A DNA stretch of 62,338 nucleotides, filler included, from Diploschistes diacapsis (lineage: Eukaryota), in the NCBI GenBank assembly GCA_023645945.1. It is 8 parts of 8 records of this genome, joined end to end, with 100 filler letters (N's around TTAATTAATTAA, not from the genome) between each part and the next. Parts side by side here need not be neighbours in the genome. Positions count along the whole stretch, not along the records: positions 1 to 24,501 come from JALAIB010000236.1; 7 more parts are not named here. One strand, 5' to 3'. The notes beneath the pieces are model-generated. The model was not told where the DNA came from and ran no database searches. It saw only the letters and a program-made list of their open reading frames with translations. Positions 5,503 through 11,769 of the stretch are shown one piece after another. A program made the position numbers and the translations under genes. Within the stretch, counting starts at the first letter, position 1, and the number at the start of each line of letters is the position of its first letter.

Positions 5503-6158
5503 CTATAAATACTTCGCCCCATCCCCCACCCTTTCTGTTCTCTTCACCTTCTTCATTCTCTTCACTACTCACCACCCTCCATCCTTCCTCCTTTTTTCCT
5601 TCATTTCTCTTCTCTCTATTACTCTTCAACTACCTCACTACCCTTCCCCCCCTCTCTATCACTCTCCACGCTCATCTTCTCTAAAGGCATGCTTTGGGTG
5701 TCAGTTCTCACCACCTGAAAGATCTTATCAAGATAATCACAGGACACGGTAAGGCCTTGGAGCTGCTCCTCACAGCTGCTCGACGTATGTGCTAATCATC
5801 TCCTGCCACAGGGAATAAGCGCTAGTCATAGCAGATCACAGTGAGTAACAGCACCATCCTCTATCCAAAGCACCACTCCTACCCTCAACCCTCCGTGTCA
5901 CACGTCAGAGACCTCGCTGTTTTTATCTCTCTGGGGTCCCTCGAAGGGTTCCAGAAAGCCGAGTACACCACGTTCTCAAGCGTTCTTGAGGGAACACAGG
6001 GTTCCCGAAACCTAGCTGCTAATCGCAGATGGTCTAACTTCCATAAAGTGACAGACTTCAAGACAGACTGACAAATACAAAGACTTGGGTACATCGAGGT
6101 GAAATTTACATACTCGGAGCTTTGAAGCACTCACTAACGCAATCATGGTAGACTCACA
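5503..6158 (+). promoter_or_regulatory. Distal promoter and spliced 5' leader of the Argonaute gene
   Basis: TATAAATA near 5504 followed by a CT-rich tract; candidate introns 5749-5811 (GTAAGG..GCTAAT..CAG), 5841-6028 (GTGAGT..GCTAAT..CAG) and one ending at 6151 (CTAAC..TAG), 7 nt before ATG 6159. Confidence 0.5.
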
Positions 6159-9100
6159 ATGTTCAACAATTCATCTGGCCGCTCATCCGTGAGCACCGAT
6201 CCCGCATATAGAGCCTATGATGGCCCTGCCGATCCATCTGTAGGCGCAAGTGCCCGCAGCGTCTCTACTAGTACTAGAGCCCCATCTACAACTAGATCGC
6301 CCCAGGTCGTGGCGGTCAAGCAGATAAAGGCAGCAATGCCTAGGAATGTTGACTTGTGGGGGGATGCGTGGCAGTTGGCCACAGAAGGGGTAAGCTATGA
6401 ACTCTTCAGCAACACTCTCTTGCTTGAACACCCTGCTTCAATTTCCCAAGGCAAACATGACCACTGTATTCACCATGTATGCTTGTTGCGTTCTCAGCTG
6501 CAAGGTTATGTATCTGCACGCTTGCCGCTGACATCCGCTCAACCAACTTGCTACCAACTTCTATCTTTGCTTGTTTGCCGCTCAATCACGCAACACTTCT
6601 ACACTTATTGAATACTTTGCCACCCGTTTGTTCGAGATTTGAATAGCATGGCTTGGGCGTGTGATCCATGTTTGCCTTACGCCAGGCTTCTCACAGGCGA
6701 ACGTTCCTTCTATATAAAGCGCCCCACTCCCCATCTTCATTTCTCTTTCTCACTTCTCGAGTGCCTTTCCTCTCTTTCAAGGCCTTCAGGTGACTTTATC
6801 ATCTCAAGATGTCGGTTCAGTCCACAGGCGCTGGTGGCAGTGCCAGTGGCCGCAAGCCGTCTTCCGCTCATGCTACCCAATCCACACCCTCTGCTGCTAG
6901 CGAAGAGCGAAAACCGCGGGTTTACCCCATGCCTGACGAGTCGCGTGAAACGGACATGAGGATTCGTCTACGTGATTTGAAGCTAACACCTGACAAGTAT
7001 GAGAAGCCCTATGATCTGGTGAAGCGTCCAGGCTTTGCCACCGCTGGGAAACCAATTGGAGTCGAAATCAACGCCTTCAAAGTGCTTTCCTATCCAAGCA
7101 TCAAGGTCTATCAGTACGATGTAAGCTTAACATACTGCACTTGTTCGGTTCCCAGCCAGACTAACTCATTCAACTAGGTCTTGATCGGAAATGGCGACGA
7201 GAAACGTGGCCTTATCGCCAATGTCTGGAAGGCCAAATCATTCGTAGAGAAGCGCGGAAAAGGCTGGGTTTTCGATGGAAACCGTCTGGCTTGGTAAGTC
7301 TCCCGGAACCAGTACATGCATTTCATTCCGTTGACTCAGACTAGGGCTACGCAAGATGTTGGTCAGCAAACCATCATGGTGGACATGGACGAGGAGAAAG
7401 GTCGCCCTTCTACTGGACGCAATGTCCATCGTGTGCAAGTCCGCCTGAGCAAGACTCTTGATCTCTTCCCACTGGAGGCATATCTGAGCGGCCAAGCACC
7501 TTTCGACAATATCGTGCTTGAAGCAATCACGTTCATCGATCATCTCCTGCGAGTTTTTCCCTCTGAGAACCTCTTATCCATTAAACGGTCATTCTTCGAC
7601 AAGAGTATGGCAGGCAGTTTTCCCCTATCTGGAGGCGTTATTGCCATGAAGGGAGTGTACCAGTCGCTCCGTCCCGTCCAGGGCGGTGGACTCGTTATCA
7701 ACGCCGATGTTGCCCATACTTGCTTCTGGGACCCCGAACCGAGCCTCGTTGCCCTAGCTAATGGCCTACTACCTGCGACCGACCCAAGGTTGTGGTGCAA
7801 TCTCCTTTGGGAGCGGAGGCAGCCTAGAGCCGATGGACCCTGGTTTGAAACACCCGAAGCACGCCAGCTTCGGCGCTTGAAGAGGCTTCGCTTCAATGTG
7901 TGGTACGACGGCATAACGGAGAGTGCGAAGAGCAAAATATACATCGTTGAAGAGATTCTGCACACGAACGCGCTGGAAACGACATTTAAGCAGGTCAACC
8001 ATACTACTGGTGAATCTCGAGATATTTGTCTCAGAGATTACTTTAACGAGCAGTATGGAACCCACATTCATTTCCCAGGATATCCGACCATCAAGACTTC
8101 TCGGGGACAGCTGTTCCCCATTGAACTCTGTTTCGCGAACCACGGCGAACGCTACAATTTCAAGGCGAACGAACTCCAAACTAGCCAAATGATTAAGTAC
8201 GCGGTCACCAAACCCGATGTTCGAGCTCAAGCGATCTACAACGGCCTCAAGGCACTCGATTGGAAGGGGGATCCCTATCTGAAGCAGTACAAGATGGACA
8301 TCGCCGACCGTATGATCACCACCAACGCTCGTCTGCTTGTACCTCCCGAAGTCGAGTTTGGCAAGGGTAAGACGGAGAAGCCAGGCACCAGCGGACGCTG
8401 GCGCATTGATGGAAAGCAATTCATCGAGCCAGCAGGCGCCCTGAAGCACTGGGGTGTCATGGTGCTCGACAATTTCGGTCGAGGCAAAGCCGTCGCTACT
8501 CCTGCGGTTCAACAGTTCATTGTAAATTTCATTGGCGAGTACCAGAAGTTTGGCGGCACCGTTACCAATCGTCAACCCATTATCATGCCGGGCCGACCAG
8601 ACATCGCCAAGGCTGTCGAAGCGCTATGGGAGAGTGTAGCACGGAAGTGCACACCTCCTGAACGTCCACAGATCCTGCTTTTCATTGTCAATGCCAAGTC
8701 GACTGACCCATACAACCGCCTGAAGAAAAACTGCGATTGCCGTTACGGTGTTGTGTCACAGGTAATGCAGGCCGCTCACGTACAGAAGAATCAAGGACAG
8801 TACATCGGTAACGTCCTCATGAAAGTCAATGCTAAGCTGGGTGGGTTTTCTTTTCGGTCGCTGTCCTATGGGGTCAAGCCCAACACTCAGTTCAGTCACT
8901 TCAAGCAGCCGACCATGATCATTGGTGCTGACGTGTCCCACCCTGGTCCTGGCAGTTTGGGCGCTTCAATGGCAGCGGTCACAGTCTCCATGGATAAGTT
9001 CGGTGCCAAGTACGTTGCTACCTGCCAGTCAAACGGATCCCGCATCGAGATGATATCTACGTGGAACTTCGAGGATATGCTTCGTAACACTTTCATTGAC

Positions 9101-9814
9101 TGGATCAAGAAGTTTCATTGTTTCCCCAAACACATCATCTACATGCGCGACGGGGTCTCGGAGGGCCAGTTCCAGCATGTTCTTCACCAGGAGATTCGCG
9201 ATCTCAAAGCTGTCTGGGACAACCTTGACTTGAAGAGGCAGGGCTGGGCCGAGAAAATCAAGTTCACGGTCATCGTTGCTTCGAAGCGCCACCACATTCG
9301 TTTCTTCCCCAAGGCTCCAAACCGGGACAACAACAACAACCCCCTTCCAGGCACTCTGGTCGAGCGCGATGTAACCTCGCCGTATGGTTGGGACTTCTAT
9401 CTCTGCGCTCATCGTGCTATCCAAGGAACTGCACGTCCCGTCCATTACACAGTCCTGATGGATGAGAACAAATCCAACCCGGATTGGCTGGTCAAAATGA
9501 TCTACGAGCACAGCTACCAGTACGTCCGCTCTAGCACACCCGTGTCGGTTCACCCAGCCATCTACTACGCACATCTTGCGGCTAGGCGTGCCGTCGCCCA
9601 CGAAAAAAACCAAGGTATGGGGGATGGCCCCAGGTCATCAGAGATCATAGAGCGCGAGGACCTGATCGAGGCCAAGATCATTGCTGATCGCACCGGAAAG
9701 ATTCTCCGCCAGGACGCTCTTCAGCGTCTCAAGGCGCTGACCGAGCTTGAGCATCCTCGTCTCATTCCCATGAACAACGAAGGTGAGATCAAGGAGACGA
9801 TGTGGTACGTCTAG
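6159..9814 (+). CDS. Argonaute, QDE-2/AGO type (N, PAZ, MID, PIWI), with candidate alternative starts at 6159 and 6809
   Basis: Exons 6159-6389 + 6998-7120 (or 6809-7120), 7178-7293, 7345-9814; motifs KRPGF, FDGNRLAW, GVYQSLR, NVLMKVNAKLGG, GADVSH, RDGVSEGQF, KRHHIRFFP, QGTARPVHY, AIYYAHLAA, MWYV C-terminus; catalytic D, D and H visible. Confidence 0.97.
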
Positions 9815-10576: not shown

Positions 10577-11769
10577 ATGTCTTCCGCTGTCGTGAGTGCG
10601 GACGATGAGACGCTAGAGCCGACGCTGCAAAGCATACTCGACCAGAAGACGTTGCGATGGATCTTCGTGGGCGGCAAAGGTGGCGTCGGCAAGACCACGA
10701 CCTCGTGCTCTCTTGCCATCCAGCTGGCGAAGGTGCGCAAGTCGGTGCTGCTCATCTCGACCGATCCCGCACACAATCTCTCCGATGCCTTTGCCCAGAA
10801 GTTCGGCAAGGAGGCCCGGCTCATTGACGGCTTCAGCAACCTTTCTGCCATGGAAATTGACCCCAACGGCAGCATCCAAGACCTGCTGAAGGAACAGGGT
10901 GAGGGTGCCGAAGAGGCCATGGGAGCGATGGGCGGGATGGGGAACATGATGCAAGACCTTGCTTTCAGTGTAAGCTGTGGTGACGGGCAATACTTAGCGG
11001 CTTGTCGGAGCTTCTACTGACGCTACCATAAGATTCCTGGCGTCGACGAGGCAATGTCCTTTGCCGAAGTTCTGAAGCAGGTAAAGAGCTTATCCTACGA
11101 GGTCATCATCTTCGACACCGCGCCGACAGGCCACACTCTGCGTTTTCTACAATTTCCAACCGTCCTCGAGAAAGCGCTGGCCAAGCTCTCGCAGCTGTCA
11201 ACACAGTTCGGGCCTATGCTCAATTCGGTTCTTGGTGCAAGAGGTGGACTTCCAAACGGGCAGAATCTCGACGATTTGCTCGCCAAGATGGAGACCCTGC
11301 GTGAGACGATTGCGGAGGTCAACACCCAATTCAAGAACCCGGATATGACCACCTTTGTCTGCGTGTGCATAGCCGAGTTTTTGTCACTTTACGAGACAGA
11401 AAGGATGATACAGGAGCTGGCGAGCTACCAGATTGATACCCATTGCATCGTGGTCAACCAGCTTCTGTTTCCGAAGAAGGAGAACCCGTGCGAGCAATGC
11501 AACGCGAGAAGAAAGATGCAAAGAAAGTATCTCGAGCAGATTGATGAGCTCTATGACGAATTTAACGTGGTTAAGATGCCGTTACTCGTCGATGAGGTTA
11601 GAGGAAAGGACAGTTTGGAGAGGTAAGTCTCCAGAAAGAGTCTGCTGGCGGCGCGATGAGAGATGTTCGAGCAGCGTGCAGCATTCTTACGATGGTGAAA
11701 AACACTGCTGATCTTGGTAACAGATTTTCGGAAATGCTCGTGCACCCATACCAGCAGCCAGAAGAGTAG
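10577..11769 (+). CDS. GET3: ATPase Get3/ArsA (tail-anchored protein targeting)
   Basis: Exons 10577-10969, 11033-11622, 11724-11769; [11 protein letters not shown]-loop, [40 protein letters not shown] dimerisation motif. Confidence 0.98.

Follow-up and report, generated by a model that had tools for sequence, protein, structure and literature searches.

Evidence for a conserved second start, embedded in an intron, in an Argonaute gene of Diploschistes diacapsis

Can one fungal Argonaute gene encode two proteins with unrelated N-termini, the start of the second lying inside an intron of the first? The question is raised by a locus of Diploschistes diacapsis, for which an earlier note had proposed two alternative N-termini on a single slicer core: a distal coding exon (here exon A) that is spliced to the core, and an ATG within the intervening intron whose frame (here segment B) reads directly into the core. 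The window, i.e., the whole stretch of DNA that was analysed (62,338 nucleotides, filler included), comes from contig C1513 at positions 1-24501 and is N or off that contig at 24502-62338. The gene's neighbours in the window, judged by eye from ORF translations, we take to be ASF1, RNA14 and GET3. On re-reading the sequence, the coordinates proposed for exon A, its donor, the branch, the acceptor and the ATG at 6809 all proved correct. The features of the locus are these.

5504..5690, plus strand: probable distal promoter, a TATAAA at 5504 and, after it, a CT-rich tract (read from the sequence; promoter function putative)
5689..5718, plus strand: 9-codon uORF in the probable 5' UTR of transcript A, with the sole ATG of the putative spliced leader
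5749..5811, plus strand: probable 5' UTR intron 1, 63 nt (GTAAGG donor, CTAAT branch at 5792, CAG acceptor; placed from signals alone)
5841..6151, plus strand: probable 5' UTR intron 2, 311 nt (GTGAGT donor, CTAAC branch at 6134, TAG acceptor; likewise placed from signals alone)
6159..6389, plus strand: coding exon A, 77 codons, the N-terminal tail of isoform A (profile and shuffles)
6390..6997, plus strand: phase-0 intron of isoform A, 608 nt (same junction in relatives)
6711..6808, plus strand: probable proximal promoter and leader of B, with TATATAAAG at 6711, CT-rich (promoter function putative)
6809..6997, plus strand: dual-use segment B, 63 codons, both the tail of isoform B and the 3' end of the A intron (relatives, NCBI model)
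6983..6997, plus strand: branch CTAAC at 6983-6987 (A at -12) and acceptor AAG at 6995-6997, which are also codons of B
6998..7120, plus strand: shared exon 2, start of the folded Argonaute core, TAT GAG AAG from 6998 (conserved Tyr); weak ArgoN match, E 0.02
7178..7293, plus strand: shared exon 3 (splice signals; agrees with the NCBI model P0437), between introns 7121-7177 and 7294-7344
7345..9814, plus strand: shared exon 4, with part of N, and L1, PAZ, L2, MID and PIWI (Pfam, alignment to human AGO2)

Exon A ends RNVDLWGDAWQLATEG and is followed in phase 0 by a GTAAGC donor at 6390; the ATG at 6809 has A at -3 and opens 63 codons into exon 2. When spliced by these coordinates, isoform A (979 aa) and isoform B (965 aa) have no internal stop and share 902 residues. 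The distal TATAAA, the CT tract (C+T is 88% in 5515-5615), the uORF and the two 5' UTR introns had been missed in the first reading; the uORF could damp translation of transcript A. The intron 6390-6997 in turn holds a probable proximal promoter, a leader and the coding start of isoform B: C+T is 74% in 6721-6808, and the last 100 nt before 6809 have no ATG and a C+T of 71%. The in-frame GAG 7003 and AAG 7006 (window 6990-7006) are preceded, at 11 and 14 nt, by a second branch-like motif, CTGAC with its A at 6993; use of these two as minor acceptors would remove the conserved Tyr from isoform A.

Exon A is recognizable by its kin. It bears the conserved [YF]DG and RNVDL motifs; a profile built from related A exons, this one excluded, gives it 19.4 bits (decoy maximum 5.3), and none of 500 shuffles reached its motif score. 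The NCBI model named Diploschistes diacapsis, P0437, is identical to isoform B at 965/965 residues; thus B is annotated and A is not. That model, the failure of the searches to recover exon A from any close relative, and two peculiarities of the A tail in the window (the basic N-terminal cluster that 24 of 50 A proteins carry is missing, and W stands at a position where one of 73 tails has W) would fit a species that inherited the architecture yet uses one form, B as in the model, while exon A decays. We consider this unlikely: gene models give one isoform by design, exon A retains an open 77-codon frame with A at -3, a canonical donor and a significant motif match, and upstream of it stand its own TATA and CT tract and a pair of UTR introns whose signals are canonical.

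For segment B, chance must be reckoned with. Among 20,000 shuffles of the intron, 1.4% produced an in-frame RnnATG with at least 58 open codons ahead of the last 15 nt, and 8.5% one with at least 10 open codons; the window alone is therefore only suggestive, and it is the relatives that settle the dual start. The AAG acceptor alone likewise proves little in this window, since the first GET3 intron also seems, by eye, to end in AAG (11030-11032).

The shared part is an Argonaute core, in which Piwi, ArgoL1, PAZ, ArgoL2 and ArgoMid exceeded the Pfam cut-off, ArgoN fell below it when exon 4 was searched alone, and alignment to human AGO2 together with motif positions placed the catalytic tetrad DEDH at D672, E711, D745 and H886 (B numbering). 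In the AlphaFold model of Monascus A the alignment of the core with human AGO2 sets in two residues past the junction; thus isoforms A and B are both predicted to be complete DEDH slicers. Recombinant BcAGO2 cleaves RNA in vitro (PMC12054834), and the His of the tetrad is common to the Diploschistes Argonaute and FgAgo2 (PMC5310905).

The nearest named relatives in the homologue search were lichen fungi, and the matches included Paracoccidioides PABG_02302, PADG_00716 and PAAG_11422, which Table 1 of PMC6428129 lists together with Neurospora NCU09434 (sms-2) and Afu3g11010 of A. fumigatus. The QDE-2 chain 2yhb, a solved fragment, scores 132 bits on the window gene vs. 280 on a QDE-2-like paralogue (L003, at G000:C4259), the QDE-2 orthologue elsewhere in the same genome. 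RNA14 lies upstream of the Argonaute in 17 of the 26 distinct loci, among those listed, with at least 2.5 kb of upstream sequence. The Paracoccidioides names, the QDE-2 scores and the RNA14 synteny together point to the SMS-2 (meiotic-silencing, MSUD) clade, an assignment made by proxy rather than from a tree that includes SMS-2. Assays of induction by dsRNA or virus, which the earlier note had suggested, would accordingly address the wrong paralogue, the QDE-2 orthologue being L003; in Neurospora it is QDE-2, not SMS-2, that is the main antiviral Argonaute (PMC7648066). We rejected the name PpdA for the window gene, as PpdA is the QDE-2/RsdA orthologue in PMC10275271. The genome has a further Argonaute (L002, at G000:C3702) with two stops within the match, probably introns, and a search of the genome with positions 6100-7000 matched only those positions. 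One homologue, from Chaenotheca (P0019), is an Argonaute called 'Histone chaperone asf1' at NCBI, a name probably taken from the adjoining gene.

Relatives were collected by scanning metagenome contigs with a degenerate exon-2 pattern, which yielded at least 114 loci, with flanks for 80 of 114. Twelve of the 114 listed loci, without the RP anchor, were left out; the junction was placed in the other 102, which collapsed to 75 distinct loci. Exon A with a phase-0 GT donor was found in 40 of these 75, in 39 by a profile score above the decoy maximum of 5.3 and in one by hand. The 35 listed loci in which no spliced A was found comprise seven that look non-orthologous or are differently built, seven with A fused, 18 with less than 550 nt of upstream sequence, and three more, L004 (where an A is probable by eye), L015 and L056. 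B starts, the pairs for dN/dS and two of the donors were picked by hand. These loci are kin, so that the counts describe a pattern and not independent trials; the seven loci with a TAG acceptor (see below), for example, amount to about three lineages.

Start B was present in 26 of the 40 distinct listed loci with a spliced exon A; by nearest named relative these belong to what we take to be the Eurotio-, Lecanoro-, Leotio- and Dothideomycetes. Its in-frame ATG stands 17-50 codons before the acceptor (63 in the window) and has a purine at -3 in 26/26 of these loci, vs. 57/128 for other intronic ATGs. The acceptor that B must read through is AAG in 15 of the 26 and CAG in 11, and never TAG; in the 14 listed loci without B it is TAG in seven, CAG in six and AAG in one, and for the next intron, in 32 listed loci including the window, it is CAG in 17, TAG in 15 and AAG in none. 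The branch A is at -11 (21 loci) or -14 (five loci) in the 26 loci with both starts, and two loci (L049, L092) have the junction one codon later than usual. The A intron measures 287-757 nt in listed loci with B, vs. 52-56 nt in 10 of the 14 without it. Four loci appear to show B in decay in an intron that is still long: two are without an in-frame ATG (L012, L114), one has an in-frame stop (L069) and one a 170-nt intron (L025). In the seven fused loci (L026, L028, L046, L055, L070, L106, L115) exon A runs on into exon 2, and neither an intron nor an AG is present at the junction; these lineages have lost intron and B together. The fused form of L106 could instead be a spliced RNA. At L056, B is present and no A was found within the 1302 nt upstream. 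Thus A is kept in every listed lineage with enough upstream DNA but one, B is optional, and B has been lost repeatedly. Three Argonautes about 41% identical to the clade (L005, L054, L073) lack both the A motif and the conserved acceptor; they may represent a fungal lineage that branched off earlier, which would then date the architecture.

The B codons behave as coding sequence. With the ATG and the last five, splice-signal codons removed, dN/dS for B was 0.25 (15 pairs, 257 codons), beside 0.16 for exon 2 (626 codons) and 0.23 for the end of A (192 codons, from pairs with A in both loci). An alignment-free count in equal-length pairs gave 35/31/75 mismatches by codon position in B vs. 55/54/52 just upstream. 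The B codons are under purifying selection. The B tail of the window itself has diverged: it gains no score on the pan-fungal B profile, where 116 of 500 shuffles did as well. A close relative, P0410, has the B start and B motif as in the window and 28 tail identities, a score reached by 0/2000 shuffles; P0411 also matches, P0413-P0415 match weakly (9-24 of 2000 shuffles) and P0419 marginally (49), and the match to P0412, P0423 and P0132 was not significant.

Public proteins tell of the same two starts. Homologues fall into a long class A that ends R/K-N/R-x-D/E-L and a short class B that ends R-H/N-...-T/A-D/N-x-x-K/Q, and the same Tyr follows both. Both classes occur within one 90% cluster in the same species or genus in Monascus, Exophiala, Xylographa, Paracoccidioides, Gyalolechia, Botrytis, Sclerotinia and Hyaloscypha. 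Of distinct B tails, 72/74 end in K or Q, residues with codons that can end in AG without being a stop, vs. 3/29 A tails. Of 46 short ORFs, nearly all start at B and continue across exon 2 into the intron that follows. On the evidence of these relatives, the dual-start architecture is very probably real and conserved. The proposal of two alternative N-termini on one slicer core is borne out by the frames, by the relatives and by selection, and so is that of 6809-6997 serving as both intron and coding DNA (26 listed loci, dN/dS of 0.25); the conservation at codon level in orthologues that the earlier note had named as a check was found for both segments.

Are the two tails ever joined? The same note had raised an alternative, namely that exon A is spliced from 6389 to the AAG at 6806-6808 to give one long isoform with A and B in tandem. 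That AAG does abut the ATG at 6809 in frame, and public models, which differ in giving A, B or an A-B fusion, include tandem A+B models in Pleopsidium, Xylographa, Gyalolechia, Exophiala, Paracoccidioides and Botrytis. We nonetheless regard this as very improbable. No YTRAY branch motif precedes 6808; among the introns of listed loci, only two of 27 have an in-frame AG with a branch motif upstream of the B ATG, both at a distance of 8; and the tandem models join A to B at a place that differs by genus, whereas the examined intron-free contigs join A to the Tyr. Among Sordariomycetes, the Colletotrichum and Xylaria models examined have A only.

Those intron-free contigs come from Logan. For Monascus, intron-free ORFs were found for A (908 aa, on contigs of 3300 and 3404 nt) and for B (896 aa, on a contig of 4266 nt); other Logan ORFs of the Monascus cluster are broken at introns. 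An intron-free B on a 3636-nt contig agrees with the Sclerotinia sclerotiorum model at 922/923 shared residues, and intron-free A was found for Hyaloscypha, Erysiphe, Exophiala and P0017; in P0440, the genomic sister of the last, the frame runs on into the donor. The exon A junction of the window recurs in the intron-free relatives P0114, P0160, P0167, P0017 and P0363, and the genomic ORFs P0136 and P0440 run into a GT donor at the same position. From the missing introns we infer that these contigs are spliced RNAs; if so, B sequence would stay in RNAs from which the other introns are removed, a circumstance that does not by itself fix the 5' ends of such RNAs. We rejected P0043 and the P0034 group as RNA evidence, as the same ORFs occur on contigs of 14-59 kb and of up to 22 kb.

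How, then, would B be expressed? We think it likely that a second promoter lies inside the A intron. Among 26 listed loci, ATG density is 4.6/kb in the 100 nt before B vs. 14.4/kb in the rest of the intron, a dip that is partly due to low G (10% vs. 16%). Exact TATA[AT]A was not enriched, being present in nine of 27 introns of listed loci vs. 5.5 expected, and is missing from several clades. Four loci of one clade (L009 4030-4470, L022 2644-3074, L061 4067-4470, L067 4080-4470) share conserved elements within the intron, namely a pair of ATGCAAAC-like blocks, a block GG(G/T)CTCG and a TATA-like YATAARA box, together a candidate regulator site for promoter B.

Alternatively, one promoter would suffice if B were reached by re-initiation or leaky scanning on distal transcripts in which the intron is kept. 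One intron-free Monascus B ORF (P0161) extends upstream of the B ATG by 90 codons, or at least 270 nt, and fits intron retention too, and the lack of TATA enrichment is in keeping with it. However, in such a transcript of the window ATG 6159 would open a frame of 150 codons that ends within the intron, followed by seven more ATGs before the B leader; and the depletion of ATGs and enrichment of CT just before B, as well as the TATA-like block kept in one clade, argue for a start of transcription there. Retention accordingly strikes us as improbable. An exitron-like retained intron does not fit, with the exon A frame stopping 73 codons into the intron.

The best explanation, in which we have fair confidence, is that of two transcription units from one SMS-2-clade gene, separately controlled and sharing everything from the conserved Tyr. 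The distal promoter would give an RNA in which exon A is spliced to the acceptor at 6997, and hence isoform A, with a long low-complexity tail whose closing conserved motif probably folds back on the core. The promoter within the A intron would give an RNA that begins past the donor, so that nothing would be spliced at the acceptor, and translation from ATG 6809 would pass through branch point and acceptor to give isoform B, with a shorter, unrelated and disordered tail. Such an arrangement would allow separate control of the two forms, with tails suited to different localisation or partner binding.

Whether the forms differ in function is a closer call, and we lean only slightly towards a difference. 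Both starts might be real and do the same job, B serving as a second promoter only and its peptide being held by splice signals and mild folding needs. The tails do lie outside the folded core, the B tail is predicted to be disordered, B is lost or decaying in 14 of the 40 listed loci, and the TD/TN and K/Q at the end of the B tail are the branch point and acceptor. Against this, dN/dS stays at 0.25 even without the last five codons, one column upstream of and outside the splice signals is Arg in 105/121 B tails, and partial order is predicted for the A motif but not for B: in AlphaFold, residues 21-40 of the Monascus A tail have pLDDT 69-73 and residues 1-22 of the B tail are below 50, which is only a hint, as the underlying alignments differ. 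We regard a single shared job as a serious possibility, if the lesser one. The tails were also described as Ser-rich; this stood for the present lineage (Ser makes up 12/77 residues in A and 10/63 in B in the window) but not for the 26 related loci, where B tails are mostly not Ser-rich. RG pairs number zero in the window tails and 4-6 in A tails of Chaetothyriales. An origin of A and B by exon duplication was not supported, with a profile-profile probability of 2.4% over seven columns and no detectable homology; in the same test for duplicated alternative first exons, B was found to have no donor and to be contiguous with exon 2.

A bolder reading, which we offer tentatively and doubt in its full extent, is that the Argonaute of this clade is two proteins from one gene in Eurotio-, Lecanoro-, Leotio- and Dothideomycetes, kept for hundreds of Myr by the dual-use acceptor. 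A promoter switch would swap a long tail, with a basic start, a middle that forms granules and a motif that docks on the core, for a short free one, and so move the slicer between a sexual perinuclear silencing complex and a vegetative or host-contact silencing pathway. If this is true, knockouts of the whole gene and tags on a single isoform have shown an average of two proteins.

The two starts account for a split in annotation, with models near 900 vs. near 1000 aa (939, 1012 and 1024 in Botrytis; 901 and 1006 in Exophiala dermatitidis) and one and the same species given as A, B or a fusion. Many moulds and lichen fungi keep both starts while gene catalogues show one, and an N-terminal tag or a cDNA complement would capture one form only. 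The locus is also a natural case of DNA under splicing and coding constraint at once, for which the lineages without B are controls.

By proxy, the same clade includes Neurospora SMS-2, F. graminearum FgAgo2, P. oryzae MoAGO1, B. cinerea BcAGO2 and A. fumigatus Afu3g11010. It is reported in meiotic silencing (Neurospora), vegetative silencing (Pyricularia) and infection (Botrytis), and a second isoform would be a testable reason for these mixed roles, at least in classes with both forms. The role of SMS-2 in meiotic silencing by unpaired DNA is known for Neurospora (PMC12054834, PMC7648066), and in Fusarium the clade is reported in ascospore formation and bulk small-RNA production (PMC5310905). 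The accessible text of PMC12054834, PMC5946944, PMC12871901, PMC5310905 and PMC10275271 treats the gene as one protein. A literature search, mostly of open-access main texts, returned no report of two N-termini for the SMS-2 clade in fungi. An intron-embedded second start with a private coding tail thus appears to be unreported for fungal Argonautes, while Argonautes with alternative promoters are already known from csr-1. In Drosophila AGO2, alternative starts alter the N-terminal extension alone; these are separate first exons, with no intron-embedded coding start sharing an acceptor known.

Fungal cases of alternative transcription start sites (Zeb2L/S, wtf, zao-1, Cryptococcus), in which downstream starts change N-termini (PMC9604717, PMC12754623 and a Cryptococcus preprint), are mostly truncations; here, by contrast, each isoform has a private tail that is under selection and is kept across classes. 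A review of such cases has, in its accessible portions, nothing on Argonaute or RNAi. The closest precedent is C. elegans CSR-1a/CSR-1b, with a distal first exon that encodes a disordered tail and a promoter in a first intron of about 0.5 kb; there, too, most csr-1 orthologues are annotated with one isoform (PMC8270938; see also PMC8421154 on csr-1 isoforms). The csr-1 promoters were demonstrated by reporters (PMC8270938), whereas the probable second promoter of Diploschistes is read from sequence. CSR-1's first exon is RG-rich, unlike the window tails. Finally, CSR-1b is CSR-1a minus its first exon, whereas here B has a tail of its own, of 17-63 codons, that overlaps the branch point and acceptor of A.
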